Positions 1 through 41,893 of a stretch of 55,073 bases of DNA are shown here, in pieces (position 1 is the stretch's first letter; every line of letters begins with the position of its first letter). The stretch lies in the IMG/VR virus record IMGVR_UViG_3300045911_000603. One strand, written 5' to 3'. Position numbers and translations under genes: made by a program. The DNA is from an uncultured virus (IMG/VR IMGVR_UViG_3300045911_000603). Taxonomy: Duplodnaviria > Heunggongvirae > Uroviricota > Caudoviricetes. The notes below the pieces were generated by a model. It was not told the origin of the DNA. It saw only the letters and a list, made by a program, of their open reading frames with translations, and made no database searches.

Positions 1-929
1 AAACCAACAAAGCTGCAACGCCGTTGCACGCTTGAGTGTAGAAGGCCCTGGTCGGAGGGCAATCCCAAACCGAAGGGCCGCCGGGGTGCCAGCCCGGAGG
101 AGTGTAGAAGGCCCTGGTCGGAGGGCAATCCCAAACGCGCAGACCGAGCATAAAAGCTCGTAGTCCAGTGTAGAAGGCCCTGGTCGGAGGGCAATCCCAA
201 ACCTCGTCACCGTTTCACTCGCTTATCCCGGGAGTGTAGAAGGCCCTGGTCGGAGGGCAATCCCAAACGCCCGACCCCGTGACCATGTGGACCGTGAAGT
301 GTAGAAGGCCCTGGTCGGAGGGCAATCCCAAACACAGCTGCTTCCACAGTCTCGGGCGAGACCAGTGTAGAAGGCCCTGGTCGGAGGGCAATCCCAAACC
401 ACCCGTTCCAGGCCTGCGGCCCGGTTGCGAGTGTAGAAGGCCCTGGTCGGAGGGCAATCCCAAACCAAATCGTTGAATTTCTTGACGGGGATGTCAGTGT
501 AGAAGGCCCTGGTCGGAGGGCAATCCCAAACTACGTCAAGCGTAGGGGAAGAATCAGAGATTAGTGTAGAAGGCCCTGGTCGGAGGGCAATCCCAAACTT
601 CCGGGTCCGGCTGCCGTCCGGAATGGAGAGTATAGAAGGCCCTGGTCGGAGGGCAATCCCAAACGATTTGGCCGCCGTGCGGAAAGCGGTGGGGAAGTAT
701 AGAAGGCCCTGGTCGGAGGGCAATCCCAAACGCACTTCTCGAAGCGGCACTTCGCCATCCAAGTATAGAAGGCCCTGGTCGGAGGGCAATCCCAAACGCA
801 GTCAACGGCGCAACCGAGCCGCTCGCGAGTATAGAAGGCCCTGGTCGGAGGGCAATCCCAAACACTGCTCGGGATTGCTAGCGATTCGCTGCAAGTATAG
901 AAGGCCATGGTCGGAGGGCAATCCCAAAC
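1..929. CRISPR. CRISPR array, 36-bp repeat AGTRTAGAAGGCCCTGGTCGGAGGGCAATCCCAAAC; 14 full repeats plus a partial one at the window edge, 14 spacers of 29-31 bp
   Basis: Repeats start at 35, 101, 167, 233, 298, 364, 430, 496, 563 (AGTGTAG variant) and 629, 696, 762, 828, 894 (AGTATAG variant). The last copy has an extra C>A change. Bases 1-4 (AAAC) are the end of a further repeat, so the array continues off the window. Confidence 0.99.
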
Positions 930-1351
930 GTTATTATCCCTGCGGCTAGAAAGAAGTAACCTTGGTAATTTGGTAATGGGGTTGCCGTGCCCTCGACGAT
1001 GCCGAGAAGTTGGGCATTGTTCGTGCTGATGGCCCGTCTCACGCTGTATGTGTGTTCTTGGCCCTTTAAATCTTTTACCGTTTTCTCAATTGCGAGGATG
1101 ACGTTGAATTCGCTCACCTCGATGTGACCTTCGGGGTTGGCGAGCCATTCCTGGGCAAAAGCCTCGTCGGCTTCGTATACGTATTTCAGCCAGACATTGG
1201 CCAATCCAGTGATGAAAAGGCTGCCTGCAAGTGCCGCAAAGATTAATTTTGAACGGTCAAGATGTTGATCTCCAAAGAGGTAGTTCCCGGTGTAAATGCC
1301 CATTATGAGTAGGACGAACGCGATGAGTAGGATTATGAGGAGAGCGGTCAT
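878..1351 (-). CDS. Membrane protein (about 3 hydrophobic segments) whose C-terminus is encoded by the terminal CRISPR repeat and spacer
   Basis: 157-aa ORF with hydrophobic stretches ALLIILLIAFVLLIMG, LIFAALAGSLFITGLA and YFFLAAGIITFGIAL. Confidence 0.7.
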   Translation of the reverse strand: MTALLIILLIAFVLLIMGIYTGNYLFGDQHLDRSKLIFAALAGSLFITGLANVWLKYVYEADEAFAQEWLANPEGHIEVSEFNVILAIEKTVKDLKGQEHTYSVRRAISTNNAQLLGIVEGTATPLPNYQGYFFLAAGIITFGIALRPWPSILAANR

Positions 1352-2224: not shown

Positions 2225-2801
2225 GACTTTTCACATTTTGACAAGTAAAGAAATGATTAATCTCACCACCGTGTCCAACCAAAATACACCAGATGATCGC
2301 TACCTAGACGATCTGCTCAAAAACCCAATCCGCATCCTTTCGGACAAGTTTGTTCGCCCCCGGTTTGCGGCCCTGGTGGAAATCATGCGCAAGGAAAACC
2401 GGGATGTGATCCTCTACCACCAGCGCGACTACATGAGTCTGTGGCAGAACGGCAAACGCCGGGGGATTTCGTTTTGGGCCAGGAAGGTGGATCATTCAAC
2501 GTGGATTTTTCGCATCCGCAAGGGTAAGGCGAAAAAGAGTCCACTCCTCAACATCCCCCGCCGCTACAAAATTGGCACCACCAAGTTGTCCGATGGCTCG
2601 GTCGTGCTCACGGAACGCATGGCTGCCAAATGGGCAGGACGGCGAATGAGCAAAAAAGCCCAGGCCCAATATGCGGAGGAGATTCTCGCCGGGAAAAAGG
2701 ACCCCAAAGAGGGACGCTTTCACCCAGACTTCCGCGAACGCGAGTTCAACAGGCGCAAGAGGAAACCGCAAACTCCAGCGGAACAAAAGCCCGAATCATG
2801 A
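2223..2801 (+). CDS. Basic hypothetical protein (start uncertain)
   Basis: 192-aa K/R-rich ORF whose stop overlaps the topB ATG (ATGA coupling). Confidence 0.7.
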   Translation: MTFHILTSKEMINLTTVSNQNTPDDRYLDDLLKNPIRILSDKFVRPRFAALVEIMRKENRDVILYHQRDYMSLWQNGKRRGISFWARKVDHSTWIFRIRKGKAKKSPLLNIPRRYKIGTTKLSDGSVVLTERMAAKWAGRRMSKKAQAQYAEEILAGKKDPKEGRFHPDFREREFNRRKRKPQTPAEQKPES

Positions 2802-5236
2802 GCCGGGAAACCATCTTTCTCTGCGAAAAACCAAGCCAAGCCCGCGATATTGCGGGTGTTCTTGGCGTGCTTGGTGGCGCAAAGCAGGATGGTTTTATTC
2901 CCACCAAGCAAGGCATCGTAACCTGGGCCATCGGGCATCTGTTGCAGCTTTGCGATCCCGATGAAATTGATCCGCAATGGGCAGGAGGATGGAGCCTGGA
3001 CAATCTGCCAATCGCTCCATCCTCATTCCCTGTGAAGCCGAACCCGAAAACGAAATCACAGCTCAATGTCATCAAAAAGCTTCTCAAAACGTCTAATCGC
3101 GTCGTGATCGCAACCGATGCCGACAGGGAAGGCGAAATGATTGCCCGCGAACTGCTCGACTACTGCCAATGGAAAGGCCAAATCGAACGGCTTTGGCTTT
3201 CGGCTCTGGATGAAGCCAGCATCCGCAAGGCCTTGGCCAATCTGCGGGCGGGGGAATCCACGGCCCCCCTTTATTACGCTGCCCTCTCTCGTTCCCGCGC
3301 CGATTGGCTTGTGGGCATGAACTTCACCCGAGCCTACACCGCCGCCATGGGACGGGGCGGGAAAACCTACTCGGTCGGACGGGTCCAGACTCCCACCCTG
3401 GCTTTGGTGGTTCGCCGCGACCGCGCCATTGAGGAATTTCGCCCAACGGATTATTTCACCCTCAAGGCAATGGCTCATCCGCAGGGCGCGGAGTCATTCG
3501 CCATGTTTCATCGGCCCGAGGAGAAAATCCTCGACCAAGCCAAGGCCAAGACCTTGGCGCAAGCAGCCGAAGGTGCTTCCGGATTGCTCAAGGTAGCCCG
3601 CAGCAAGAAAAGCACCAGCCCACCCAGGCTGTTTTCCCTCTCCACCTTTACCAAGGCCGCAAACGCTGCTTTCGGGTGGAGTGCCAAGCAATGCCTCGAC
3701 ATTGCGCAGTCTCTCTACGAAACGCATAAAGCGACGACCTACCCACGCTCCGATTGTGAGTATCTGCCCAACGAGCAGGAGTCCGATGTTCCGCAGATCG
3801 TCAAGCACGCCTTGGATGTCGCCGGTGCATGCAAACTCGAACTCGACGAGTCCAGCCGCAAACAACTTGCCTCCGCGCCCATCATCCGCAAAACGGTCTT
3901 TTGCACCGCAAAGGTAACGGCCCACCACGCCATCATTCCCACCACGGTCAAGCCCGACCTCGGAAGGATGAATGACAACGAGCGCAAAGCCTACGGGCTG
4001 ATCCTCGCCCGCTACCTGGCCAATCTCCTGCCAGACTACGAATACGAGGCCACCCGCATCTCCATGCAGGCCGCCGGACTGGAGTTTGTGGCCTCTGGCA
4101 GTGTGCCATTGGTCATGGGCTGGCAATCACTTTTTGCTGCCAGCGATACCGACGAACCCCGTCTGCCGAATGTGCAGGATGGAACCAAAGCAACTCTGCG
4201 CTCGGTCCAAGTAGAGCAGAAAAAAACCGAACCACCCCCGCGCTACACCGAGGGAAGCCTCATTGAGGACATGAAAAGCGTGGGCAAGTTCGTGGAAGAT
4301 CCCGAACTCAAAAAGCGTCTCAAGGAAAACTCTGGAATCGGCACGGAGGCCACCCGAGCCAATATCATCGCCACGCTCTTTTCTCGCGGCTTTATCGAAA
4401 CCAAAAAGCAGGGCAAGAAGGCAGTCATTATCTCCACTCCTACGGGGCGAGAATTTCTCGACATATTGGAACGCACCCTTCCCGCGCTGGCCGACCCTGC
4501 CCGCACCGCCATTTGGGAAACCGAACTCGAAGAAATCGCCTCCGGCTCCACCTCCCATCTGCCATTCGTGCGCAACATCATCAAAGAAATCTCCGATCAA
4601 ATCAACGCACTCAAAAACCACCGCAAAACCATGTCCAAACAACTCAATCTCAAGTGCCCGAAATCGGGCGAACCGATCCTTGAATACGAAACCACTTATG
4701 TGTTCCCCGGCTACCCGGAGGCCAGTTTTCCCAAGGTGGTGGCCCAACGCAAGATCACTCCCGAGGAAATGCTCCAAATCGTAACCGACGGCATCGGCCC
4801 GGAAATGGAGGGGTTTATCTCCAAGTCCAAGAAACCCTTCAAGGCCCGCCTGCGCTTTGATCCCAACCGGCAATACAACGGCAAGCCTTCGCCCGGCATT
4901 ACTTTCGACTTTGGGAGTTCTCCCTCCGAAAGCGGGGGAGGGGGCAAGGAACTTGATCTCAAGTGCCCCAAAACCGGCCAACCCATCAAGGATGTTGGAG
5001 ATGCCTTTGCCTTCGGGGTCGCGGGGCTTTACGGGCGAAAAACCCTCTTGGAAAGGCCCATGTCCGTCCAAGACTATATCGCCGTCCTGGAGAATCCCGA
5101 GGGGGTGGAGTTTGACGGGTTCCGCAGCAAGAAAACGGGCAAGACTTTTTCCGCCACGGTGGTGTTCGTGGCGAAATCCAAGTTCAATGGAAAACCAGGA
5201 TTCGAGTTCGAGTTTGGAAAGGAATCGCGTGAGTGA
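2798..5236 (+). CDS. topB: DNA topoisomerase III (type IA) with two C-terminal Toprim_Crpt-like repeats
   Basis: CEKPSQARDIA, ATDADREGE, SVGRVQTPTL, catalytic TYPRSD, HHAIIPT and GIGTEATRA motifs; two KCPK..G...GF.SK repeats. Confidence 0.95.
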   Translation: MSRETIFLCEKPSQARDIAGVLGVLGGAKQDGFIPTKQGIVTWAIGHLLQLCDPDEIDPQWAGGWSLDNLPIAPSSFPVKPNPKTKSQLNVIKKLLKTSNRVVIATDADREGEMIARELLDYCQWKGQIERLWLSALDEASIRKALANLRAGESTAPLYYAALSRSRADWLVGMNFTRAYTAAMGRGGKTYSVGRVQTPTLALVVRRDRAIEEFRPTDYFTLKAMAHPQGAESFAMFHRPEEKILDQAKAKTLAQAAEGASGLLKVARSKKSTSPPRLFSLSTFTKAANAAFGWSAKQCLDIAQSLYETHKATTYPRSDCEYLPNEQESDVPQIVKHALDVAGACKLELDESSRKQLASAPIIRKTVFCTAKVTAHHAIIPTTVKPDLGRMNDNERKAYGLILARYLANLLPDYEYEATRISMQAAGLEFVASGSVPLVMGWQSLFAASDTDEPRLPNVQDGTKATLRSVQVEQKKTEPPPRYTEGSLIEDMKSVGKFVEDPELKKRLKENSGIGTEATRANIIATLFSRGFIETKKQGKKAVIISTPTGREFLDILERTLPALADPARTAIWETELEEIASGSTSHLPFVRNIIKEISDQINALKNHRKTMSKQLNLKCPKSGEPILEYETTYVFPGYPEASFPKVVAQRKITPEEMLQIVTDGIGPEMEGFISKSKKPFKARLRFDPNRQYNGKPSPGITFDFGSSPSESGGGGKELDLKCPKTGQPIKDVGDAFAFGVAGLYGRKTLLERPMSVQDYIAVLENPEGVEFDGFRSKKTGKTFSATVVFVAKSKFNGKPGFEFEFGKESRE

Positions 5237-5480
5237 GGATCCCGCCATCTACCGCTCCCCGGTTGAGTCCCAACCGGGCAAGCCCCGGGTTGCCCCCATT
5301 GAGCAGGAGGCCCGACGCATGTTTGCGTGCGCTGCCCTGAGTGCGCTCATCGGCAAGTCAACCTACCCCGAGGGAAGTCTCGAAAAACTAACCCGCCTCG
5401 CGTTTGAGTTTGCCGACAAAATGATGGAGGAGGAGAGGATCAACTGGAGCGAGGAAAACCAATCCACCCGCAGTAGGTAA
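5229..5480 (+). CDS. Small phage/plasmid-type hypothetical protein
   Basis: GTG start overlapping the topB end; FACAALSAL...AFEFADKMM pattern typical of small mobile-element proteins. Confidence 0.6.
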   Translation: MSEDPAIYRSPVESQPGKPRVAPIEQEARRMFACAALSALIGKSTYPEGSLEKLTRLAFEFADKMMEEERINWSEENQSTRSR

Positions 5481-5512
5481 CCAGCTTATCCTGTGGTCAA
5501 CGATGCCACCCC

Positions 5513-5836
5513 GTGGAAACACCGCATCCAACGCAGTCGGGTCTATGGATCATCGGGCAGCCCTTGCTCGATCCTCGCCTCATTCCGCATGACAAGGCTG
5601 CGGCGACTTTATTTTGGCAGGTGCCTTTGGGCTACGCCACGCTCTTTCCTGCCAGGGAGTATTTCTGCGTGCAGGCAATTCTCGATGGAAAGGTCGCGCA
5701 GATCGAAAACCTGTGGATCCGGGCGGAAAACGGCGCGGTTCTCGTGAGCCAGGGCAACTCGGTTTTGCGCCGCTATCAAACAGAGGATTTTTCCGGCGCG
5801 TTGTTCGATTGGGTGCGGCAAAGGCAAGAACCGTGA
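5513..5836 (+). CDS. Hypothetical protein
   Basis: 107-aa ORF, GTGA-coupled to the next gene. Confidence 0.55.
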   Translation: METPHPTQSGLWIIGQPLLDPRLIPHDKAAATLFWQVPLGYATLFPAREYFCVQAILDGKVAQIENLWIRAENGAVLVSQGNSVLRRYQTEDFSGALFDWVRQRQEP

Positions 5837-6198
5837 ATTGCGTCACTCTCAGCGGCAAGGTGTCCGGCAATCCGAAAGTAATGCAAGATCCTTCGGGGAG
5901 ATTGCTTATGGCCGAGTTCCGCCTCGTGGACACCGGCCTGCTCATGGATGTGGTGGTGCCCTGCGATGTGGCCGAGCCGATTGCTCCCTGGTTGCGCAAC
6001 GGGCAACGTGTTGTGGTGCAAGGCTCCCTGCTGGTCGTTTTCTACGTCGAACGATCCTCTGGCCTCAAGCAATCCCGCGCAAGAATCAGAGCCAGGGAAA
6101 TCCTGCGCCTCCAAGAGGAAGGCGAACAACCAAACAAGGGAGGCATGGCGATGAAAGCCAAGGAATCCTTTCACCTCGCAGCCTCGTCCAATCTATGA
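5833..6198 (+). CDS. Divergent single-stranded DNA-binding (OB-fold) protein
   Basis: NCVTLSGKV...LRNGQRVVVQGSL...RIRAREI follows the SSB pattern; no acidic tail. Confidence 0.75.
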   Translation: MNCVTLSGKVSGNPKVMQDPSGRLLMAEFRLVDTGLLMDVVVPCDVAEPIAPWLRNGQRVVVQGSLLVVFYVERSSGLKQSRARIRAREILRLQEEGEQPNKGGMAMKAKESFHLAASSNL

Positions 6199-6635
6199 CC
6201 TGGAAAAGCCATACCACGGTAACCGGAGCATGGGCTTTCGCTCTGACCTCCGATCCAGGACTAACTGCCGCTGCTGTGGCCGGAAGCGTTCTGCCGGACG
6301 CAATCGAAATTGTGTTCCCTTTTCTCAAGCACCGAGGCAACACGCATGCCCTGGTTCTTTGGATCGCAGTCCTTGCGCTGATTCCGCTTGCCGGATTGGC
6401 TACACCGCTCTGGCCGTATGCCTTTGCTTTCGTGGCCGGAGGACTCGCTCATGTGGTCGAGGATGCGTTTTCTGTGACGGGAGTTCCTATTCTCCCAAGC
6501 GCGGTCGGCTCCGGCCCGCAACTACGTATTCCTCTTTACCGCACCGGCAAGCCAAGTGAGTTGCTTTTCAGCCTCACTCTCATTGCCTTGGCCGTTGGTT
6601 TTGCCAGTTCCTCTCTCCACAAGGTGTTGGGCTAG
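6195..6635 (+). CDS. YdjM-like membrane metal-dependent hydrolase
   Basis: SH, GSVLPD, HRGNTH and HVVED..TGVP motifs plus TM segments. Confidence 0.85.
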   Translation: MTWKSHTTVTGAWAFALTSDPGLTAAAVAGSVLPDAIEIVFPFLKHRGNTHALVLWIAVLALIPLAGLATPLWPYAFAFVAGGLAHVVEDAFSVTGVPILPSAVGSGPQLRIPLYRTGKPSELLFSLTLIALAVGFASSSLHKVLG

Positions 6636-6681
6636 TTCTCAAGGCCCACGTTGGCCTCGGAGGTCATGCGTATTATCAGGT

Positions 6682-6858
6682 ATGCAAACCTTCAAAATCA
6701 CCTACTCGTTCGGGCAAATGGACCCCACCCGCCGCATCGCAGAGATCACGCTCGCGCCGGGCTACACGGTGGGCCAAGCCGCCAGCATTTTTGCTGCGCG
6801 CATGGATTGTCGTTTTCTGCAAATCCACGAAATCTGCAATCTTATATGCCAACACTAA
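6682..6858 (+). CDS. Small hypothetical protein
   Basis: ATG ORF filling the gap and overlapping the next start. Confidence 0.45.
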   Translation: MQTFKITYSFGQMDPTRRIAEITLAPGYTVGQAASIFAARMDCRFLQIHEICNLICQH

Positions 6859-7829
6859 AACAGTTGGATCAAGCCGCAGAAAGGCTTGCGGAATTTGCGG
6901 GCAAGGACTGCTGCCCGCAGTATCTTTTCTGGCTCGCAGAGAATGCGAGCCGTCGTCCGCAGGACTGGGGATTTCCCCGGTCCTACGCATGGCGTCCCAA
7001 CTGGCTACAGCATGACATCCGCCGGGAGGTCTCCAGAGTGCTATGGCGTCTCCCCACCCATCCGTCAAGGGTGGCGCGGGAGTTCCGCTATCTCCCGTTC
7101 CGCATTCTTGCGGAGATCGCGGACGGTTTTATTCATTTGACGTGGCCCCACGCTCCGTCCTCAAAAATCCGCCACGAGTGGCTGGCGGCATGTTCTGCCA
7201 ACCGTCAATTTGGCGGCAAAGAATGGCGGGACTGGCTCAACAACCCGCTCCGGTGGGTTTGCCGCCACTGCCCTATCGGAAGCTATTACCCCCGCTCCCT
7301 GCTCATCGCGCAATGGCTCGAAGAGAAGAAGGGGTGGAAGGGTTGGACAAAGGGGATGTCTTTGGGATATGCGCCAGACGGACAGCCAATTACAATTCGC
7401 CCGGTCGAGTTGCTGGATGAGGTTTTCGATGATGACCTTACGGCCGGCATCAAAACCAACCCGGAGCGTGTTTTTCGGGCGGTATTGAAACGCAAGTCCG
7501 AGGCCGAGTTGGCGCGGATCGCCTACGAGAACGCTCCCTTCCCGGAAATGCCGTGGACGGAAATTCCCGGGGTGGAACAAATCCGCTACGCCCGTGACCT
7601 TGTGGCTGAAGGAGAACGCATGAAACATTGTGTCGGGGGTTATGCCGACCACTGCCGCCGTGGTGGGTGTTATATCCTCCGTCTGCCACACAGCACGGCA
7701 GAAATCCTTCCTGACGGCAAGGTCTATCAGCACCGGAGCTATCAAAATTCTGAGCCTACTCAAAAAGACCAAGAATTGCTGGCCCGGTGGCTGGCAAATA
7801 GAAAAACAAAACAACCTAAAACCAACTGA
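6846..7829 (+). CDS. PcfJ-like domain protein
   Basis: C-terminal LVAEGERMKHCVGGY motif followed by a Q.R...N motif. Confidence 0.8.
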   Translation: MPTLKQLDQAAERLAEFAGKDCCPQYLFWLAENASRRPQDWGFPRSYAWRPNWLQHDIRREVSRVLWRLPTHPSRVAREFRYLPFRILAEIADGFIHLTWPHAPSSKIRHEWLAACSANRQFGGKEWRDWLNNPLRWVCRHCPIGSYYPRSLLIAQWLEEKKGWKGWTKGMSLGYAPDGQPITIRPVELLDEVFDDDLTAGIKTNPERVFRAVLKRKSEAELARIAYENAPFPEMPWTEIPGVEQIRYARDLVAEGERMKHCVGGYADHCRRGGCYILRLPHSTAEILPDGKVYQHRSYQNSEPTQKDQELLARWLANRKTKQPKTN

Positions 7830-7833
7830 AAAT

Positions 7834-7962
7834 ATGAAAATCAACCGAATCATTAACCACGCCCGCTTTACGTGGGCACACATGCCCACTTGGGCAAAGA
7901 TTTGCGACGGCATTATTGTTGCAGCCATTGTTGCTGCCGTAATTGCGCGTCGCCTCAAATAA
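7834..7962 (+). CDS. Small membrane peptide
   Basis: 42-aa ORF with a hydrophobic C-terminal helix after an A/C-rich leader. Confidence 0.4.
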   Translation: MKINRIINHARFTWAHMPTWAKICDGIIVAAIVAAVIARRLK

Positions 7963-7989
7963 ACCAACCAACCAACCAAACCTACAAAT

Positions 7990-8397
7990 ATGAAAAAAGC
8001 CATCTGGTTCTCCCGGCACCAGCCAACAGCCGGGCAAATTGAGGACGCGGCCCGGATGGGCTACGCCCTCGAAGTCACGCCCGAGGGGACGACCCTTGGG
8101 GCAATGGACCTCCGCGACAACGGCGACGTGCTCGCCTGCGTCTCGGGGTTGCTGGGCCATTGCGCCGCGCAGGGCGCGACCGCCATATTCGGGGTTTTCG
8201 CCGCCCCGATCCTTGCCCAAATCGCGAGGACGTCCGAGGACGTCCGGCAGCGGGGAGAAATCACCGAAGGAGACATCCCGTGCTTCGCCGCCTGGAACGT
8301 CATGCGTTCGCAGGAGGGCGGCAAGCCCACTTTCGAGCACAAGCAATGGTTGGGCATTGGACGGATCAACCAGGATTCCTGCCGCTGGTTGAAATGA
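7990..8397 (+). CDS. Hypothetical protein
   Basis: 135-aa ATG ORF after an (AACC)n leader; coupled to the next gene. Confidence 0.75.
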   Translation: MKKAIWFSRHQPTAGQIEDAARMGYALEVTPEGTTLGAMDLRDNGDVLACVSGLLGHCAAQGATAIFGVFAAPILAQIARTSEDVRQRGEITEGDIPCFAAWNVMRSQEGGKPTFEHKQWLGIGRINQDSCRWLK

Positions 8398-8774
8398 ACA
8401 TAAGCCAGAAGATCGAAGATGCGGTCCGCGCCCTGATGGAGTTGGGCGTTGCGACCGAGGATCAAGCCCGGCTGTGGATCCAAGAGCAGATTCGCTTGCG
8501 CGGGGAGGAGGCTGGGATTGCCAGAGCGCACAGGGAAGTGCGCTGGCAGAAACTGGTCCACAAGGTGGCCGATGCCCTCGGATCGAGAGCGAGCAAGTCC
8601 GTTTGGGACGAAGAAGACGAGGGGTTTCGGATCGTCAGAAAGGGGATCGATGTAGTGGTGTGGCTCAATGCCAAGATTGACGAGGGGCTGTCTGACGCGG
8701 AGATTCTCGAAGCCGCCCGCCGAACAGGGGCGTCGGGCGATCCGCGCCGCCGCCCGTCTCGCGTGGTGGCATGA
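8394..8774 (+). CDS. Hypothetical protein
   Basis: ATGA-coupled ORF starting MNISQKIEDAVRAL. Confidence 0.65.
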   Translation: MNISQKIEDAVRALMELGVATEDQARLWIQEQIRLRGEEAGIARAHREVRWQKLVHKVADALGSRASKSVWDEEDEGFRIVRKGIDVVVWLNAKIDEGLSDAEILEAARRTGASGDPRRRPSRVVA

Positions 8775-8819
8775 AAACTTTGCCGAAAGGCACTGGAGAC
8801 TGCTTGGCGGTCGAACTAC

Positions 8820-8860
8820 CACAGAGCCCGCGCCGGAGCAATCCGGCGCGTGCCTCTGTG
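8820..8860 (+). terminator. Strong GC hairpin (GCAA tetraloop), possible terminator or structured RNA
   Basis: CACAGAG..CGCGCCGGA-GCAA-TCCGGCGCG..CTCTGTG; no clear U-tract. Confidence 0.45.
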
Positions 8861-8916
8861 TTGGAAAAACTTGACAAGTTGAGTAAATGAAAATAACACG
8901 AGGACTCTATGGCAAC
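8861..8916 (+). repeat. Direct repeat copy 1 (promoter, operator, RBS and ATGGCAAC)
   Basis: Near-identical to 9878-9934 (one indel, one substitution); contains TTGACA and ACTTGACAAGTTGAGT (8869-8884). Confidence 0.95.
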
Positions 8917-8971
8917 GCCAGTGGTTTGAGCACCAACACGGACTGCCGTTCCGTGGCGTGCTGATCCATTG

Positions 8972-9064
8972 GACGAACGCTGACCTATGACTGCCGCGCA
9001 AATACAGCCCGAACTTGCCACCGACTCCGACGCGGCAGACATTAGGTCCACCACCTCGTTGTCC
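8972..9064 (+). mobile_element. attC-like recombination site
   Basis: GACGAAC...GACCTATG/CAT-T-AGGTC (extrahelical base), CTGCCGCG/CGCGGCAG stem, ...GTTGTCC. Confidence 0.55.
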
Positions 9065-9874
9065 GTTTCTCGCCCCGTGGTCCGCTGGCACGGTGGGAAA
9101 TGGAAAATAGCCCCGTGGATAGTGAGCCACTTCCCGAAACATCGGGTCTATGTGGAATCCTTCGGCGGTGGTGGGTCTGTTCTCATGCGCAAAAAACGTA
9201 GCTATGCCGAGGTCTATAATGACCTCGACGGGGAAATTGTGAACCTTTTCCGGGTGCTCCGGGATCGCGGCAATGAATTGAGGGAGAAAATCGAACTGAC
9301 TCCTTTCGCTCGCGTGGAATTCCGCGAAAGCTACTTGCCGACGGAGGATCCAATTGAACAGGCACGCCGAACTCTCGTCCGTTCATTCATGGGATTTGGA
9401 TCGAACGCACACAACAAAAATACCGGATTCCGCTCGAACACGACACGTTCAGGAACGACACCTGCGCAGGACTGGAGGAACTACCCGGAAGCCATCGCTG
9501 CCATGATTGAAAGGCTGCGTGGCGTGGTGATAGAAAACCGAGAAGCCTGCGAGGTCATGCTGGCCCACGATGGCCCGGAAACGCTGCACTATGTGGACCC
9601 GCCCTACGTGCCAGAAACTCGGGACAAAGGCAGCGACTATCGGCACGAAATGACCGAGGACGATCACCGAAAACTTGCGGCCGTGCTGGAAAGCCTGACG
9701 GGTGCCGTGGTTCTCTCGGGCTATCGGTGCGGGCTTTACGACGAACTTTTTGCTGGGTGGAAGCTCGTCGAACGTCGCGCATTTGCTGACGGAGCGCGGG
9801 AGCGGGTGGAATGCCTGTGGCTCCGCAACGTCGAAATCACGCCAGACTTATTTTCTGCCAACGCAGAGGTATGA
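8987..9874 (+). CDS. DNA adenine methylase (D12/Dam-like class)
   Basis: WHGGK, YVESFGGGGSV, EVYNDLD and YVDPPY motifs. Confidence 0.93.
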   Translation: MTAAQIQPELATDSDAADIRSTTSLSVSRPVVRWHGGKWKIAPWIVSHFPKHRVYVESFGGGGSVLMRKKRSYAEVYNDLDGEIVNLFRVLRDRGNELREKIELTPFARVEFRESYLPTEDPIEQARRTLVRSFMGFGSNAHNKNTGFRSNTTRSGTTPAQDWRNYPEAIAAMIERLRGVVIENREACEVMLAHDGPETLHYVDPPYVPETRDKGSDYRHEMTEDDHRKLAAVLESLTGAVVLSGYRCGLYDELFAGWKLVERRAFADGARERVECLWLRNVEITPDLFSANAEV

Positions 9875-9877
9875 ATT

Positions 9878-9934
9878 TTGGAAAAAACTTGACAAGTTGA
9901 GTAAATGAAAATAACACGAGGAATCTATGGCAAC
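9878..9934 (+). repeat. Direct repeat copy 2 (ssb promoter, operator, RBS and start)
   Basis: Contains ACTTGACAAGTTGAGT (9887-9902), GAGGA and the ssb ATG at 9927. Confidence 0.95.
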
Positions 9935-10292
9935 ATTCAATCAAGCAACCATTGTCGGCAACGTCACCCGCGATCCCGAAGTTCGCTATACTCCGAAAGG
10001 AACCGCTGTGTGCGAAATTTCCGTGGCAGTCAACAAAACCTACACCACCGATGAAGGCGAAAAGAAGGAGGATACTACCTTCGTGGACGTGGTGCTTTGG
10101 GGCAAGCTGGCCGAAATAACCAAAGAGTATGTCAAGAAGGGGAGGCTGGTTCTCGTCGCAGGGGAATTGCAGCAGGAAACATGGCAGGACAAGGAGACTG
10201 GCAAAAACCGCTCGAAGCTCCAAATCAAGGCCGACACGATCCAATTTCTTTCTCCTCCTCCTACCCCGAAGGAGGATTCAGGCAGAGAGTAA
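9927..10292 (+). CDS. ssb: Single-stranded DNA-binding protein
   Basis: FNQATIVGNVTRDPEVRYTPKG...WGKLAE...KKGRLVLVAGEL...W.DKETG..RSKL. Confidence 0.95.
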   Translation: MATFNQATIVGNVTRDPEVRYTPKGTAVCEISVAVNKTYTTDEGEKKEDTTFVDVVLWGKLAEITKEYVKKGRLVLVAGELQQETWQDKETGKNRSKLQIKADTIQFLSPPPTPKEDSGRE

Positions 10293-10312
10293 TCAGCGAG
10301 AAATGTTAAGGC

Positions 10313-10348
10313 AAACCCGCTCCCGCACAATGCCGGGAGCGGGTTTTT
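10313..10348 (+). terminator. Rho-independent terminator
   Basis: AAACCCGCTCCCG-loop-CGGGAGCGGGTTTTT after ssb. Confidence 0.8.
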
Positions 10349-10427
10349 GCTGGAGTGAGGAGCAGAGTTCACAGAGCGAAGAATTGTGGCTTGACACGAC
10401 TGCCGCTTCTTCGTAAATAAATAATCT

Positions 10428-11621
10428 ATGGCTCGAAAATTCGACTACAACACTTTGGAGAGAAGCATCAGCAGCGGGAAGGAACAAGCACCCCAAGCAC
10501 CCCGAGCAGAACAAGGGGACATTGCGAGAACGCAAGAGCCCAAGCCCAGGCGAGCGTTAATGCAGGAGATGCAGGAAGAACCCACCAGCGGGAAGGAACA
10601 AGCAAAACCCTCCGCAGAGCCAGATCCTCTAACCCAGGAGGAAATGACCAAGCGGGCGTTGATGCAGCCAGAGTTCTACTCAATCATCGAGCAAGGCGTG
10701 AAGGCGTCGGCCACACGACTAACGGCTGAGGAGGTGAAAGCGAAAACCCTGCAAGCCATTGAGGATGCTGCCGCGTATCTGTCGGATCCATCGTCTCCAG
10801 AATACGACAAGCTCAAGGAGTGCAACCGGATGAGCAAGGTCCAAGCCATAGCCAAACTCGCCTCCATCGGGCTGACAGCCAACCGACGCAGCGGAACTGG
10901 CTTCATCGTGCCACGCTTCGACCGCGAATTGAGGATAATGGTGGCCCAAGCTACTCCAGGGGTGCGCGGAATGGAGCGATTGGTCGCTCCCCACATCAAG
11001 TGCATTTACAATTCGCTGATCCGTCGCCAGGACAAAGAGCACGAGCAAATCGACTCCAACACCGGCATGCCTTACATTGTCGTGTCGCGCAATCTGCGCC
11101 CCGATCCATCCAAGGCAAACGACATTATTGGCGTGGTCGCCAATATCACCTGCAACGATGGAACCATTATCTCCAAGCTGTTGCCCGTCAAGGTGTGCGA
11201 GGAAATCCAGAATGGACGAACCGTGCAAACGGCTTACATCGAAGGTCGGCGCATGCCCGTTGCGCCTGGGTTCATGGGGATGGAAAAGGCTCTGGAAATG
11301 GCTGCGCGGCGAGCGGTGCTCCGTGAGTTTATCTTCACCAAGCAGCATGGCATTGCCGAGCTTGCCGAGGCAGCAAAACTTGAAGCAGATGCCTATGCGG
11401 GGCTGGATGATGATCCAGCCGCAATCACCGCTTTGGAAATGGGCTCTCCAGGAGCCGAAGCCCAACCGTCCAATGCCGCGCCTCCTGTCGGGCAAATCGA
11501 GGAAACCGAACCAAATCTCCCCACCGCAGCAAAACAATCGACCAAGAATCCCCTTGCGGAAGCCCTTTCCCGAGTGGGCAAGGCGTCGGTTGAGTCCATC
11601 GAGGGGGGAATTAGCGCATAA
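10428..11621 (+). CDS. recT: RecT-family single-strand annealing protein with low-complexity N- and C-terminal extensions
   Basis: ASIGL....G.GFIVP...AQ..PG.RGM and EMA.R.VLR patterns. Confidence 0.7.
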   Translation: MARKFDYNTLERSISSGKEQAPQAPRAEQGDIARTQEPKPRRALMQEMQEEPTSGKEQAKPSAEPDPLTQEEMTKRALMQPEFYSIIEQGVKASATRLTAEEVKAKTLQAIEDAAAYLSDPSSPEYDKLKECNRMSKVQAIAKLASIGLTANRRSGTGFIVPRFDRELRIMVAQATPGVRGMERLVAPHIKCIYNSLIRRQDKEHEQIDSNTGMPYIVVSRNLRPDPSKANDIIGVVANITCNDGTIISKLLPVKVCEEIQNGRTVQTAYIEGRRMPVAPGFMGMEKALEMAARRAVLREFIFTKQHGIAELAEAAKLEADAYAGLDDDPAAITALEMGSPGAEAQPSNAAPPVGQIEETEPNLPTAAKQSTKNPLAEALSRVGKASVESIEGGISA

Positions 11622-11655
11622 CTAGCACAAACAATACGAAAGGCAAAACAAACCC

Positions 11656-12261
11656 ATGAAAGAAGAAAACATCCGAGTGTTCCCCGGGAAAACCCCGAGC
11701 GGGAAAAGCTATTACGACGTGAAAATCGGTGATGAACGCACCCGCGTTTGGGCCGAAGTCAAAGGTTACAAATTGAACGAGGTCGAAGCCGTTGGTTTGG
11801 TGCAGGGGATGGAACTCATGCGGGACCGCAAAGCCAATGCCATCCAACTGACGGGCAAATCAGGAAATCAGTATGGCGGGGCGATTTTCCCCATCGGAAT
11901 CAAGGAGGAGGAAGTCGTCAAAGATGGAACGACCTACCACAATCGAACGCTGGAGGTTGGCACTGCTGTGCTCAATTTTTCCGAGAAGGGTTACTGCAAT
12001 GGTTACCTGATCGACGGAGTGCAGTATCGGCGTTTCTACAAGCTCGAATCAGGGGATTTCTTGGAGATTGGGGCCAGCGATGCCTACCAACTGAGCCAAG
12101 GCCAAAGCGTTGAGGTGGACGGACATCGTTTTCAACTCGACACGGTGGAGGAGAAAACCCACGAGCCCAGCGGCCGAATCTACAAGAATGCCATGGTCAG
12201 CTTCACGCCTATTGCGGAAGCCGTCGAGGAACTGGACCAAGAACCAGCGGCGGTGTCCTAA
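11656..12261 (+). CDS. Hypothetical protein with DUF3945/Toprim_Crpt-like repeats
   Basis: EVKGYKLNEVEAVGLVQG...GKSGNQY segment; paralogous to the next ORF. Confidence 0.6.
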   Translation: MKEENIRVFPGKTPSGKSYYDVKIGDERTRVWAEVKGYKLNEVEAVGLVQGMELMRDRKANAIQLTGKSGNQYGGAIFPIGIKEEEVVKDGTTYHNRTLEVGTAVLNFSEKGYCNGYLIDGVQYRRFYKLESGDFLEIGASDAYQLSQGQSVEVDGHRFQLDTVEEKTHEPSGRIYKNAMVSFTPIAEAVEELDQEPAAVS

Positions 12262-12282
12262 CCTCTGCTGAGGAAAATCAAC

Positions 12283-13179
12283 ATGGGATTCAAGCCGTCC
12301 ACCAGCAGAAAAGATGCTCCCCTGCTACGCGAGGGAGATATCAGTATCTACCTGCGAAGAAGCACAGGCGGAGTTGGATTCTACAATATCCGAGACCTCT
12401 CTGGTTCGGCTCCCATGTATGTCACCGTGCCTTACGAAGTGATGGGCGCACGAATCCCACCCCGCCAAGCCATCGAACTCTATCAAGGCCGCAGCTTGCT
12501 GGAGGTGGAACTTGGCGACGAGGAAATTGCCGAACGCATCAAAAACCCGACGCCATCCGATCTGAAACATGGACGGTTGGAGAAGTGGACGGAATTGCAG
12601 GCAGCCAACCAGATGCGAACGGAAACCGAACGGGTGGCCATCATGGGGCCCCTCGTCGGCCATTTCGCCAATGGTCCCAGCGAGATCGCCGTCATTCCAG
12701 ACGGCATAATCAAGACCAGTAAAACGGTCAATGGAATCACCTACCACAATCAAGGACTGCACACCGCCTTTGCCTTCATCCGCTATTCCGCGAAAGATGT
12801 GCCAGCAGGACTTCGCTTCCGTCTCCCCGTCGAGGACTGCGAGCGGTTTGTCGAGGGCGAATCCGCGAGCCATATGGAAGCCATGCTCAAGTCCAGCGAG
12901 GACACCAATCACTTCTACCTGGACGTTTCGATGTATCATCGGGTGGACGAACGGATCGTCCGTTTGGACCCCCGCGAGTGTCTGGACCTGGTTCGTGGCA
13001 ACCCTGTGGAAACCAAAGGTATCCGATTTGAGATGACTTCCATCGAGGTCAAGCCTTCGAACAAGGGGGGCTATTATTCCAACGCGATGATCCTTGGGGA
13101 GCGGCTGAGTGTCTTGGAGCATCATGAGCCAATTCCGAAGGAAGAATCGGGGAAGGAAGAAGAATCAATCAGCATGTAA
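12283..13179 (+). CDS. Hypothetical protein, paralog of 11656-12261
   Basis: Shared motifs EV.G..(I/L)...A..L.QG, G.TYHN and Y.NAM. Confidence 0.65.
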   Translation: MGFKPSTSRKDAPLLREGDISIYLRRSTGGVGFYNIRDLSGSAPMYVTVPYEVMGARIPPRQAIELYQGRSLLEVELGDEEIAERIKNPTPSDLKHGRLEKWTELQAANQMRTETERVAIMGPLVGHFANGPSEIAVIPDGIIKTSKTVNGITYHNQGLHTAFAFIRYSAKDVPAGLRFRLPVEDCERFVEGESASHMEAMLKSSEDTNHFYLDVSMYHRVDERIVRLDPRECLDLVRGNPVETKGIRFEMTSIEVKPSNKGGYYSNAMILGERLSVLEHHEPIPKEESGKEEESISM

Positions 13180-13181
13180 TT

Positions 13182-13592
13182 ATGTTCGCAAGGAAACCGC
13201 AAACCAAAGTCGTCGCCAAGTATCCGGACGGGTGTGCTTTGCTTGACGCAGGCAAGAACCTGCCCGTTCAGGACCGATTCTTTATTACCGATATTACCGA
13301 TAAATCCGAAGTGCCCACACGTCTCCTTGATTGGGTGCGCACAGGCAAGGTGCAATCCCCGGGAGGATTGCCGAGCGAAGGATTCCGTGGATACCTGCGC
13401 TGCTTCCTCGAACTACATGAGGATGGAAATATGAGCTATCTGCTGCGGCCTGAAGTTGCCGAACTCTTTGCCGAACACAAGGAGGTTATGGAAAATATCA
13501 CCAATGCCCAGGACCGCCTGCGCGAAATCACCGAGCAAATCCAGGCAATCGAAATCTCCAAGAAAGACGAAAACCTGGCATCGCAACCATGA
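13182..13592 (+). CDS. Hypothetical protein with a C-terminal coiled coil
   Basis: 136-aa ORF in the operon. Confidence 0.65.
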   Translation: MFARKPQTKVVAKYPDGCALLDAGKNLPVQDRFFITDITDKSEVPTRLLDWVRTGKVQSPGGLPSEGFRGYLRCFLELHEDGNMSYLLRPEVAELFAEHKEVMENITNAQDRLREITEQIQAIEISKKDENLASQP

Positions 13593-13714
13593 AAAACGAG
13601 GAACATTTGAGACAGGAGATGGAGTTTCTGCGCAGACAGTTAGATGTTCTGGAAGCGCGCCGCCGTGAAATCGAAAAATTACTGATGCACTACAAAAAGG
13701 AAGGAATAGCGTAA
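13589..13714 (+). CDS. 41-aa coiled-coil peptide (not in the ORF track)
   Basis: MKNEEHLRQEMEFLRRQLDVLEARRREIEKLLMHYKKEGIA; ATGA and TAATG overlaps couple it on both sides. Confidence 0.6.
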   Translation: MKNEEHLRQEMEFLRRQLDVLEARRREIEKLLMHYKKEGIA

Positions 13715-15057
13715 TGGAACAAGCATACGTCAATGATGAAGAAAGCGGGAAAATTGTGGATGGTGGTTTTCCGGCGTTGAATCGGGATCAACTCATCGCC
13801 CGGTTGGATCCCTCGCAACCATCCCTGTATGATGCTCTCGTCGGAAGTTGTAACAGCGTCGAGGATTTGCGCGAGGTCACGCATGCGGTCGTTGCCAGAT
13901 TGGGGAACAATGCAGACTTTGCGCACCTTCAGCGTCTTGGGGAAGCCGCGACCCGCGACAAGGAGCTTCCCCCCATTGAGCGGGACAGCATGATCTCTAC
14001 GTTGCAGGCCTTTACCTCTCAATTCAGCAACAAGAACGATGTGTCCTCCCTCTCGCAGGAAGAGCGTTCCAAGAAACTTGCGCAGATCATGGATGCCCGG
14101 TGGCCTCGCCTCGACCAATCTGCCGAAAACCCCCAAAGCGCAAAAGAAGCGTTGGTGAGCATCCGGGGCCAGATCGATGCGAAAGCGAAGGAAGCAGAAG
14201 AGGTTGCCAGCCGAATTGATGCCCTTCGAGCGAAGGCTTCCGAGCTACGAGGTCAGAAGGCAGACATGGATGGGCAAAAACCCTCATCGCAACCCAAGAA
14301 GAAAAAAGATCCAGAAGAAGAGAAAGAGGACTTTGCTGCCGAGGAGAGAGCTTCTTTGTGGAAGCGAGCCATGGAAGCAATTAAAAGGTTCTTCTTTGGG
14401 AGTAACGCCGCGCAGTATTATGCTGCGCCTGCACCCCAAACGCAAGGCGAACCCAAATCCCAAGAAGAACCCAAACCGGAGGATGATCCCAGGCAAGAAG
14501 ATGATCTCAAGCCAGAGGATGCGCCCAAGCCGGAGGATGATCCTAAACTCTCTGTGGAGGAGCGGCTCAATGCCATTGAGGAGGAAATCCGCCAGTTGGA
14601 GGAAAGGCAAAAACAACTCATGCTGGAACTGGAACAGCTGCGAACCCGCCTCAAGGAGATGGACAAGGTGTTCCTGGACAATAAACAGGAAGGCGAAACA
14701 CTTGGCGTCAGCACACCGGAGGATTCTCCACGACCTTCTTCCGTGGTTGGCCCCAATCCTGGGAATGTGCAGAATGCGGGCCAAATCGTTGATAATCGAG
14801 CGAAGGAAGCAGATCGCAGGTTTCGGGATGCCCGGAAGGGAACAACACCAGAACAGGAGCAAGCTGCGGCAGGCAATCTTCCGTCAACAGTCCAGCAGCA
14901 ACAAGAGCAGGCAGAAACAGCCAATCTTCCGTCGGAATCAACACCCGGACAGCAGCAACAAGAGCAGGCCGAAACAGCCAATCTTCCGTCGGAATCAACA
15001 CCCGGACAGGAGGCTGTGGCCGAAGATCCTGTAGAAGAGGAAGGACTAAAAGTCTGA
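13714..15057 (+). CDS. Acidic coiled-coil, low-complexity protein
   Basis: 447 aa with E/Q/K-rich heptads, PEDD repeats and a tandem 19-aa repeat. Confidence 0.8.
   Translation: MEQAYVNDEESGKIVDGGFPALNRDQLIARLDPSQPSLYDALVGSCNSVEDLREVTHAVVARLGNNADFAHLQRLGEAATRDKELPPIERDSMISTLQAFTSQFSNKNDVSSLSQEERSKKLAQIMDARWPRLDQSAENPQSAKEALVSIRGQIDAKAKEAEEVASRIDALRAKASELRGQKADMDGQKPSSQPKKKKDPEEEKEDFAAEERASLWKRAMEAIKRFFFGSNAAQYYAAPAPQTQGEPKSQEEPKPEDDPRQEDDLKPEDAPKPEDDPKLSVEERLNAIEEEIRQLEERQKQLMLELEQLRTRLKEMDKVFLDNKQEGETLGVSTPEDSPRPSSVVGPNPGNVQNAGQIVDNRAKEADRRFRDARKGTTPEQEQAAAGNLPSTVQQQQEQAETANLPSESTPGQQQQEQAETANLPSESTPGQEAVAEDPVEEEGLKV
14893..15006 (+). repeat. In-frame 57-bp tandem duplication
   Basis: Two copies encoding QQQQEQAETANLPSESTPG. 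Confidence 0.95.
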
Positions 15058-15059
15058 CG

Positions 15060-16541
15060 ATGACGCAGGAACCCCAGCGCGGGCCTCGCCTGAGCGCGAG
15101 TGCCATGGACCGCATCTTTGCTTGCCCGGCAAGCTATGCCCGCAGCAAGGAGTTCGATGCGTTTGTTCGTTCTCTCGATCTGCCCGAGATGGAGGAGCCC
15201 GAGGATTCTGTGGCTGGGACCAAATTGCATGCGATTCTCGAGGAGGTTCCGTTCTCCTCTGCGCTCCTTGGGAACGGTGCTCCCGAAATGTCGGCCAGCA
15301 AGAAACTTGGGCAGGCACTTTCCAAGCTGGGCGTGGAATTGCCCAATGATGATTTTTGGTTCTTGACCCGCTGCATTGAGAAGCGGGATCACCTGATTAA
15401 CCAAAAGCTCCTCCAGGCCCGCGACCAGACGGGGGGATTTGCAATCACCGCAATTCATCTGGACTCCCAACGGCTCGCGCTGCCAAGTTTTTCCGAGTTC
15501 ACCGGCCTAGCCGATGTGCTTGTCCTCTACAAGGATGGAGCGGGACAATCACATGCCATTGTCCTGGATTGGAAGACGGGCCGCAAGGGCCACCTGTATC
15601 CAGATCCCACGCTCAACAAGCAATTGATGAGTCTGGCTGTGTTGGTGGAGCAGAACTATCCCGAAATCCAAAGCGTGACCATCGGACTCCTGCACCGGGA
15701 GAATGTTCGACTCGAAACCCCCACGCGAGTCACGAGGTATTCCAAGAAGCACTTGGAGAATGCCCGCCAAATGCTGGAAGAAAAGTTGCAGAAAGCCGCC
15801 GAGTTGCACAATCTGGTTGCTCCTCATCTGCAATCGAATGGAGGAGACGGCAAGCTGCCGGAAAATGTGCAGCGGATTCTGGAAGATGAATCCACAACCG
15901 GCGACCAGTGCGCCTTGTGTGCGGGCAAGTCTTGCTGCACGAAGCTCGCTGCCGAGGCGCGGGCTTTTGCCCGAACATTACAGGAATCGAGCTTGCGCGA
16001 AGTTACAAAAGAAACCATTGGCAACATGAACACAGAACAATTCCTCGCACATTTGCGCCAGTCCGCCTGGATCAATGAACTGGTTGCACCCTTTTCCAAG
16101 GTCCACAAGGAACTGGAAGCCGTGGCCAAAAAATTGCTGGAAGCGAACCGCAAATTGGAGGGATGCTCACTCAAGCCGGGCGCGAGAACCTGGACATTGC
16201 GGAGCAAAGTGGAAGTGGAGAAACCGGATGGCACCAAGGAAGTCCAGGAACGCCCCCTTTTCCCGCAGGATGTATTTAAGCAGCTTTTGCCACTCCTTGG
16301 CCAAACATCCTATGAAGATTTTCTCAAAACCACATGCAAGGTCAATGCGCCCGATCTGCGGGATTTACTGATGGCATCGCTGGGCACCAAGAAACCAGCC
16401 GACTTGGAGGAGAAGCTGCGGGAGATCTTCGGAGAAAACGCAATCCTTGCAGTTGTGCCTCGGGCACCATCGCTGATCGTGGATACCAGCATGGTCGAAC
16501 AACAACAACAGGAGACTGCGAGCGCAGGCGTGGCTGCATAG
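15060..16541 (+). CDS. PD-(D/E)XK RecB-like exonuclease (DUF2800/Cas4-like fold)
   Basis: LSAS....CP, GT.LH, G.AD, DWKTG, QL and C..C.....C motifs. Confidence 0.85.
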   Translation: MTQEPQRGPRLSASAMDRIFACPASYARSKEFDAFVRSLDLPEMEEPEDSVAGTKLHAILEEVPFSSALLGNGAPEMSASKKLGQALSKLGVELPNDDFWFLTRCIEKRDHLINQKLLQARDQTGGFAITAIHLDSQRLALPSFSEFTGLADVLVLYKDGAGQSHAIVLDWKTGRKGHLYPDPTLNKQLMSLAVLVEQNYPEIQSVTIGLLHRENVRLETPTRVTRYSKKHLENARQMLEEKLQKAAELHNLVAPHLQSNGGDGKLPENVQRILEDESTTGDQCALCAGKSCCTKLAAEARAFARTLQESSLREVTKETIGNMNTEQFLAHLRQSAWINELVAPFSKVHKELEAVAKKLLEANRKLEGCSLKPGARTWTLRSKVEVEKPDGTKEVQERPLFPQDVFKQLLPLLGQTSYEDFLKTTCKVNAPDLRDLLMASLGTKKPADLEEKLREIFGENAILAVVPRAPSLIVDTSMVEQQQQETASAGVAA

Positions 16542-16581
16542 CCCATCCAGTCAAACGGGAACACGGAAAATCAGGCAAAAC

Positions 16582-16597
16582 ACTTGACTTGTTGAGT
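16582..16597 (+). promoter_or_regulatory. Operator overlapping a -35 box, upstream of the transfer/pilus operon
   Basis: ACTTGACTTGTTGAGT containing TTGACT. Confidence 0.65.
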
Positions 16598-16623
16598 GAA
16601 AACGGGGACACATATCCCCGTCT

Positions 16624-17307
16624 GTGAAAACTGAACCAAAGAACGGTCAACCTAGCCCTTACCAAACGAAGTTTGGACCTCGCAAGATACTTGCCTCCCA
16701 AGCCAAGCAGACCCAATTTGCCTATATCCTAGCAGCATTGGCCCTGTGTTTCGCTGCGATCAGTCCCCACTACTTCCTGCATAAACTCCACCAGCAGGAG
16801 AACATCATTGTGCTGGATGGATCGGGCACCATGACTATTGGCCCGATTGAGCGGCTCAATGCCACCAGCCCCCTCTTCACCGAATTGGTCTTGCAAGCAA
16901 GCAAGGCCATGTTTGAGCGCAGCAAGGTCGGTCTGGAAAACCCGGAGCTTGTCACGTCCCTCTTCACGGCGTCCGCCATAGCGAAGCTCAATGATGACGT
17001 GCGCTGGCAGTTGCCCGATTTGCAAGCCAAGGACTTGCGCCAACACGCCACGATCGAGAAAATTAACGTGATTCGTGATGGGGGGGCTGGCAAGGCTCGT
17101 TTTTATCGCCTGGAGGGGCAGATCAACAGCGCGGGCATGGTCGGAGGGTCTCCGATTTCCTACACGGAACCTCTTATTGCGATTTTGTCCATTGTGCCTA
17201 ATTCGCGGATTGCGGATCGCGCGAGGTATCCCTTCCTCGTGGCCGACTTTCGCATAGACCAACCTCCCCGCCCCCCAGGGGTGTATCAGGAGGATCAAGC
17301 ACCATGA
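16624..17307 (+). CDS. VirB8/TraK-like T4SS inner-membrane component
   Basis: Single N-terminal TM, then IIVLDGSG and a helix-plus-sheet periplasmic domain; directly precedes the VirB9-like gene. Confidence 0.55.
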   Translation: MKTEPKNGQPSPYQTKFGPRKILASQAKQTQFAYILAALALCFAAISPHYFLHKLHQQENIIVLDGSGTMTIGPIERLNATSPLFTELVLQASKAMFERSKVGLENPELVTSLFTASAIAKLNDDVRWQLPDLQAKDLRQHATIEKINVIRDGGAGKARFYRLEGQINSAGMVGGSPISYTEPLIAILSIVPNSRIADRARYPFLVADFRIDQPPRPPGVYQEDQAP

Positions 17308-18662: not shown

Positions 18663-18674
18663 CCGCGACTCAAG

Positions 18675-20027: not shown

Positions 20028-20030
20028 TTT

Positions 20031-21776: not shown

Positions 21777-21791
21777 CCCAAGCCAACCTCT

Positions 21792-23198: not shown

Positions 23199-23223
23199 AT
23201 TTGCAGCCGGTTTATCGCAAAAA

Positions 23224-23239
23224 ACTTTACTTGTTGAGT
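23224..23239 (+). promoter_or_regulatory. Operator motif upstream of the pilM-like gene
   Basis: ACTTTACTTGTTGAGT. Confidence 0.6.
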
Positions 23240-23264
23240 AAAATGCTGTTTTTTCCGTTACCGC

Positions 23265-26226: not shown

Positions 26227-26247
26227 TCCAAAAAGCAAAATACGACC

Positions 26248-28206: not shown

Positions 28207-28226
28207 GACGCCTCATCCATTATGCC

Positions 28227-31753: not shown

Positions 31754-31771
31754 GCAGCTCCGAAAATCCCT

Positions 31772-41889: not shown

Positions 41890-41893
41890 CTCC

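Follow-up and report, generated by a model that had tools for sequence, protein, structure and literature searches.

Type II-C CRISPR-Cas9 systems, such as those of Neisseria meningitidis, Campylobacter jejuni and Flavobacterium columnare, have 36-nt repeats, spacers of about 30 nt and promoters embedded in the repeats. As described in two reports, their arrays are transcribed toward the leader and the oldest repeat is altered (PMC5965381, PMC8092290); the II-C literature also describes extra-repeat mutations and upstream structures by which extra crRNA is suppressed. VI-B arrays, which serve Cas13b, likewise combine a 36-nt repeat and 30-nt spacers with an inner hairpin, and their repeats have complementary 5'-GUUG and CAAC-3' ends and a poly-U loop, according to 10.1101/092577. 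In Flavobacterium the II-C and VI-B repeats have a common leader-distal start, and the same report gives no repeat promoters for the VI-B array of F. columnare (PMC8092290). A Cas9-type CRISPR locus on a mobile element is a kind already known: CampyICE1, an integrative conjugative element with a type II-C system, carries a lone Cas9 and three short arrays (PMC8743540). Type II-D (MG102, MG34, NsCas9d) is associated with an adaptation module containing cas4 in PMC12669027. Other literature was also drawn on (PMC13187072, PMC9755519, PMC12339737, PMC12080349, 10.64898/2026.08.17.745286).

The window, as the term is used here, is the whole stretch of 55,073 nucleotides of IMG/VR record IMGVR_UViG_3300045911_000603. 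Its left edge is occupied by a CRISPR array with the following parts:

1..929, minus strand: visible part of the CRISPR array, with 14 full repeats and 14 spacers; the crRNA sense is the minus strand
1..4, minus strand: last 4 nt of a 15th repeat copy, cut by the window edge, read from the sequence
35..598, minus strand: nine repeats ending in TACACT, the younger variant, with a weaker -10-like box
629..929, minus strand: five repeats ending in TATACT, with a -35-like TTGCCC 16 nt ahead of the -10-like box
894..929, minus strand: terminal (oldest) repeat, with one extra substitution

The 14 complete 36-nt copies (35-929) and their 14 spacers of 29-31 nt bear out the lengths given in a preliminary description made from the letters alone (36 bp and about 30 bp) and are those of II-C arrays; the two-repeat pattern has 13 matches in the array and none in 100 shuffles. 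The minus-strand TAYACT ending read in that description is likewise found, as TACACT in the nine left copies and TATACT in the five right ones. Because of this division, and because the last copy is further changed, the old end of the array is placed at the right, so that the altered repeat (894-929) stands at the leader-distal end as in II-C. The newest spacers are at the left, and the array runs on past position 1. The orientation is based on 33 of 34 family loci, on the promoter scan and on the leader found at the left in a related assembly, all discussed below. For the repeat at window 35-70, sequencing run X5 also shows two spacers absent from the window, spacer 11 in a variant form and, at low depth, a variant repeat next to a different flank; either the strains vary or the community holds a second, related array.

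A sigma-70 scan scores all five TATACT copies as promoters (TTGCCC, 16 nt, TATACT). Within positions 1-2800 five of the six matches fall in these repeats, as compared with 1.4 +/- 1.2 matches in shuffled sequence, and the other nine copies differ from the scoring ones by one base. The II-C-like internal promoter of the preliminary description thus holds for five of the 14 copies, and the predicted promoters lie inside the repeats and point to the leader, as they do in II-C.

One verrucomicrobial Cas9 family (L097, L098, L100, L104, L109, L141-L202) has 18 distinct repeats that agree with the window repeat at 26-31 of 36 positions; with this family the locus shares the first 14 repeat bases, the leader start and the orientation. 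It differs from every relative at no fewer than five positions (5-10 of 36), and it comes from a hot-spring mat. A Cas9 search found matches in 69 of 401 genomes of a class centred on a Verrucomicrobiaceae genome; 50 of the 61 Cas9 loci fetched have an array, and four of the repeats are 26-30/36 identical to that of the window and share its first 14 bases. The Cas9s of these four loci led to 62 metagenome loci (several of them duplicates), 22 with arrays, all of the window's repeat family, and a further eight with a lone repeat copy. A repeat is present in 34 of the resulting 66 family loci (some duplicates), and all but one of the 34 have the order cas9-cas1-cas2-tracrRNA-array with the array antisense to cas9, in a cassette of 4,356-5,540 bp (29 loci). 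As in the II-C reference systems, the array's relatives carry only cas9, cas1, cas2 and a tracrRNA; they differ from the reference systems in the position of the tracrRNA between cas2 and the array, and the window locus differs in lying on a mobile element. The tracrRNA of the relatives lies 61-81 nt beyond the repeat, and its anti-repeat duplexes (-50 to -66 kcal/mol) are the best site in the locus in five of five loci. Pairing of the first 20 nt of the window repeat with the anti-repeats of 26 family loci scores -25.9, as compared with -14.5 +/- 2.6 in 200 shuffles.

Since the family loci had been fetched by their Cas9, the association was examined in reverse, by repeat alone. The repeat family occurs in 15 of 401 genomes of one order, 13 of which were not known from this cas9, and 12 of the 13 hold the family cas9, open in nine and broken in three by one stop, frameshifts or an internal deletion; the contig of the 13th ends within the array, on its leader side. 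In two further orders, of which 47 and 104 genomes were searched, the family pattern occurs in two and one, respectively, none of them new to the set. No conclusion here depends on the unpublished genome G162. Membership of the array in this type II-C repeat family is, on the sequences compared, very likely. Exact or end-anchored forms of the window repeat gave no match in viral, metagenome and genome collections, and a looser pattern gave one (L001), dismissed as chance. Neither the family repeat pattern nor the family Cas9 was found in viral contigs, and BLAST of the array against 301 genomes of the Chthoniobacter order returned chance-level matches only (best E 0.004). The titles and abstracts found on Verrucomicrobia Cas9 or Cas9d hold no description of the family, which survey tables may contain. 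Other verrucomicrobial Cas9 arrays (L110, L120, L126, L127, L128, L130, L131 and L135) have strong inner hairpins, and their spacers measure 32 nt instead of 30 nt.

The preliminary description had taken the self-folding of the repeat as typical of Cas13b and had assigned the repeat a mixed II-C and VI-B character. The fold itself is there, with a hairpin of -11.2 kcal/mol on the minus strand and a 5-bp inner stem on both strands, but it is not notable: z is only -0.9 to -1.6, and the window's value falls inside the range of -7.3 to -15.7 kcal/mol spanned by the 18 distinct family repeats linked to Cas9. Such a hairpin is therefore common among Cas9-linked repeats, and within a 36-nt repeat it is no mark of Cas13b. 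Together with the repeat and spacer lengths and the repeat start common to II-C and VI-B in Flavobacterium (PMC8092290), the stem on both strands would agree with a VI-B or hybrid array read from the plus strand and processed at its own hairpin without a tracrRNA. Against this, the paired GUUG and CAAC ends named in 10.1101/092577 are absent together on either strand, the plus strand has no terminal stem, and the loops are GGUCGG-type (plus) and CCGACC (minus) instead of poly-U. Moreover, the repeat promoters face the leader, whereas the F. columnare VI-B array is described as having none (PMC8092290), and a tracrRNA and Cas9 accompany the array in every relative whose leader side is assembled. 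The mixed character is accordingly dropped, as the repeat lacks the Cas13b features and its family is tied to Cas9, Cas1, Cas2 and tracrRNA, and a VI-B or hybrid array is considered extremely improbable. The plus-strand likeness to Cas13b direct repeats suggested earlier is the leader-distal start that PMC8092290 describes for both types.

Two further features adjoin the old end of the array:

930..1049, minus strand: trailer; in the predicted fold its RNA pairs with the terminal repeat, a possible, weakly indicated block on extra crRNA
878..1351, minus strand: 157-aa open reading frame with a hydrophobic N-terminus and no known family; the frame passes through the terminal repeat

In the trailer 26.9 nt pair with the terminal repeat, against 16.3 +/- 5.2 in shuffles, of which 1 in 300 reaches the value (fold z -1.95), in a segment whose size was picked after the fold had been seen. 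The relatives are mixed, nine of 25 showing a pairing that at most 2 of 40 shuffles reach. The fold may be weakly consistent with the II-C suppression of extra crRNA. Positions 964-1013 of the trailer, considered as a tracrRNA-type anti-repeat, ranked 349 of 5,410 segments and were rejected. The last codons of the 157-aa frame span the terminal repeat, so that its mRNA would extend into the array.

The left side of the array is represented in sequencing run X3, one of four runs compared with window positions 1-100; run X9 gave no match there. A contig of 6,642 bp from this run consists of 6,308 bp, a repeat, the window's last spacer, a repeat and the window's right flank, with the array collapsed; 30 bases of its left flank were seen next to the repeat. 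In crRNA sense this flank begins AGGTTGACGG, identical to the opening 10 nt of a consensus built from 34 family leaders. The string GGTTGACG is exact in 16 of 34 family leaders and in none of 46 other verrucomicrobial Cas9 arrays. As read from the listing, TTGAC stands at leader positions 4-8 in 32 of 34 family leaders, and it lies one base further out in three non-family arrays (L095, L099, L108). In the relatives this -35-like box of the leader precedes the tracrRNA. The left end of the array thus appears to carry the family leader, and a family cassette would fit within the 6,308 bp. The join passes through repeats longer than the assembly word, however, so the flank may instead come from a different array that shares this repeat. 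With the leader and the Cas9-linked repeat family, the class 2 system with cas genes to the left that the preliminary description expected is supported, and a canonical cas9-cas1-cas2 set with tracrRNA upstream of the array is very likely, to judge from the relatives. We infer from them, too, that the element has its own cas9, cas1, cas2 and tracrRNA and that these are intact.

Two spacers were compared with the mat runs, and each has a perfect protospacer:

5..34, minus strand: spacer 1, perfect match on a 257-bp contig with non-repeat flanks, mat run X3 record 3
71..100, minus strand: spacer 2, perfect match on short contigs, X3 record 5 and X5 record 12

The contigs matching spacer 2 come from two runs of one sample and have a non-repeat flank on the side seen. 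In crRNA sense the 3' flanks of the two protospacers begin CACAATTG and CCAATCTC; CAAT is common to both with a one-base offset, a hint, from two protospacers, of a PAM that would contain CAAT. The core of spacer 1 has no match in viral contigs, and the spacers do not match the window itself (best 21/31). The array compared with plasmids and phages gave nothing or single weak matches (E 0.3-1), taken as chance.

These observations bear on the state of the locus. The array could belong to the same II-C family while the element's own locus is incomplete or decayed, with a broken cas9, without cas1 and cas2, or with the array alone, so that it borrows a host Cas9 or is inactive. The broken cas9 in three of 12 repeat-picked genomes agrees with such decay, and so does one of the 34 repeat-bearing loci (L190, 1575-6384), which has a family cas9, a tracrRNA and two repeats and no cas1 or cas2. 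Orphan arrays and orphan cas loci are commoner on plasmids according to PMC9071438, and the lone Cas9 of CampyICE1 (PMC8743540) is a case on a mobile element. No Cas9 on a contig of 117,073 bp or 6,642 bp is among the 347 overlapping rows and 20 clusters listed; these searches score 8,000 candidates and are incomplete, each later one having listed family members missed earlier, and in the representative search 10 of roughly 20 divergent full-length matches were checked. Decay is countered by signs of recent acquisition: the repeats, 15 or more in number, are nearly identical, the leader is that of the family, the two newest visible spacers have perfect targets, and another run holds further spacers. 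Orphan arrays are, besides, on average 39% shorter in PMC9071438, and in contrast to CampyICE1 the window has one long array, of a family that normally keeps cas1 and cas2. A decayed locus is on this evidence unlikely, and an intact II-C cassette is preferred.

The Cas9 family, of at least 230 clusters, has enzymes of 995-1,133 aa (typically about 1,030 aa), and all five catalytic-site motifs are present by strict pattern in 91 of 120. The predicted model of one relative (P0034, pLDDT 86.5) has its best fold matches in Nme1Cas9, HpaCas9, ThermoCas9 and SaCas9 (top match E 6e-32; Z 26.2, rmsd 6.4, 808 aligned); in structural alignments its identity to solved Cas9s is about 12-22%, in which the family differs from the II-C reference systems. 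II-C enzymes and SaCas9 come first in this search, and the solved Cas9d enzymes stand at rank 34 (NbaCas9) and 37 (NsCas9d). By sequence, II-C enzymes are matched at E 3e-28 and NsCas9d (9LGI) at E 3e-8.

A II-D reading was raised by NCBIfam NF049971 (Cas9d), which outscores the general Cas9 model TIGR01865 in all 28 family Cas9s scanned. Like MG102, MG34 and NsCas9d, family Cas9s have RRxRR (119/120), a CxxC..HxxC zinc ribbon (117/120) and low Met (0.84%), counts made for family relatives only. The reading was set aside: none of the 28 relatives reaches the NF049971 cut-off of 375 bits (149-359 bits, against 660-1,250 for members), and published Cas9d enzymes have 600-970 aa and a REC lobe under 300 aa, whereas REC is about 339 aa in the family (measurable in 106 of 120). 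The family cas1 is TIGR03639 (177 bits against a cut-off of 120), and there is no room for cas4, the gaps being at most 289 bp between cas1 and cas2 and 440 bp between cas2 and the repeat (33 loci). Size, REC length, Cas1 type and the lack of cas4 agree with II-C; the family Cas9 would work like a II-C enzyme and is for now best filed there. Five verrucomicrobial loci (L095, L099, L101, L107, L108), with Cas9s of 880-1,600 aa and 36-nt repeats, do score 660-1,250 bits with NF049971; their Cas9s exceed published Cas9d in size, and what the model calls Cas9d may be another lineage. Unusually long Cas9 frames also occur in Verrucomicrobia at L099, L111, L110 and L135 (1,595, 1,662, 1,424 and 1,328 aa).

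Of the non-canonical effector proposed earlier, a weak form survives, in that the family Cas9 is a divergent lineage without a close solved structure. In a stronger form, the array and tracrRNA would serve a derived effector, either a Cas9 that is shortened or has lost its nuclease activity or some other protein, and would act in silencing or in conflicts among elements. The window repeat is the most divergent seen, and one genome offers a precedent: at L229 (G503:C1:928500-944000) the family cas9 lacks roughly residues 49-619 (bridge helix, REC, HNH) beside an intact cas1, cas2 and tracrRNA and a 59-repeat array. That case may be simple decay, however, and the catalytic-site motifs are complete in most family Cas9s, and such an effector is very unlikely here. 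Distinctly unlikely, too, is a combined reading in which the element's Cas9 would be a derived form (heat-adapted, possibly shortened or nuclease-dead) of a deep-branching lineage with Cas9d-like motifs and about 20% identity to any Cas9 of solved structure, used with a CAAT-containing PAM against other mobile DNA of the mat.

The rest of the window is that of a plasmid-like element:

2630..53428, plus strand: element body, with topoisomerase III, two SSB-like genes, a Dam-type methylase, a RecT-like gene, a PD-(D/E)xK gene, a type IV pilus-like cluster, a ResT/TelK-type domain, a UvrD helicase, an LPD1 protein, AAA ATPases and a type III restriction-modification system

Of 10 window proteins checked against existing records, seven are assigned to a contig of 117,073 bp. 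The window appears to be the right part of this contig, with 62 kb to its left, since 117,073 - 55,073 is exactly 62,000. Window DNA occurs in 13 runs, all hot-spring or microbial-mat metagenomes, and no RNA run is among those listed. Owing to the gene content and to the lack of phage structural matches among the 32 window proteins examined, the element is taken as plasmid-like, in agreement with the plasmid-borne placement proposed earlier. No transfer core was seen in this half of the contig, relaxase and VirB4 have no match in the window, topoisomerase relatives were not found in viral contigs, and Rfam has no match in the window. No cas gene was found by Pfam in 56 of the 182 listed open reading frames, no pair of HEPN-like motifs in the eight frames of 600 aa or more, and no significant tracrRNA anti-repeat within the window, as the preliminary description had also reported for cas genes and anti-repeat. 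Among 11 loci with relatives of the window SSB, the best are six from Verrucomicrobia, 51-60% identical, and two from Planctomycetes, 56% identical; the host is therefore probably a hot-spring verrucomicrobium.

Several other genes of the element deserve mention. The type IV pilus-like cluster (18675-31753) encodes prepilins and PilT-, secretin-, PilB- and PilC-like proteins of low identity to known plasmid genes. A 276-aa protein (34515-35345) has the ResT/TelK catalytic domain alone and may indicate a linear, hairpin-ended replicon. A three-gene unit on the minus strand (41894-44163), opposite to the remaining genes, encodes an ABC-type ATPase and two proteins of no known family; it is a possible defence cassette, for which PADLOC gave no clear system.

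Taken together, the locus is quite probably an ordinary type II-C CRISPR-Cas9 locus with its own intact cassette, carried by a large, plasmid-like element whose host is a hot-spring verrucomicrobium; transcription and cleavage at the window locus, as well as its host, are read here from sequence comparison. From left to right the predicted order is cas9, cas1 and cas2 on the plus strand, then the tracrRNA and the array on the minus strand. Because each repeat carries a sigma-70-like promoter, short crRNAs would be made leftwards, toward the leader. Each repeat would base-pair through its 5' 20 nt with a tracrRNA whose promoter lies within the leader of 60-80 nt. Together with both RNAs, Cas9 would cut matching double-stranded DNA, and Cas1-Cas2 would insert spacers at the left end. 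In this way the locus would protect the element, or the host that carries it, from other DNA of the mat. The array is a pointer to a Cas9 family whose repeat, leader and tracrRNA are well defined and which has no close relative of solved structure; its probable hot-spring member could be a heat-tolerant editing enzyme.
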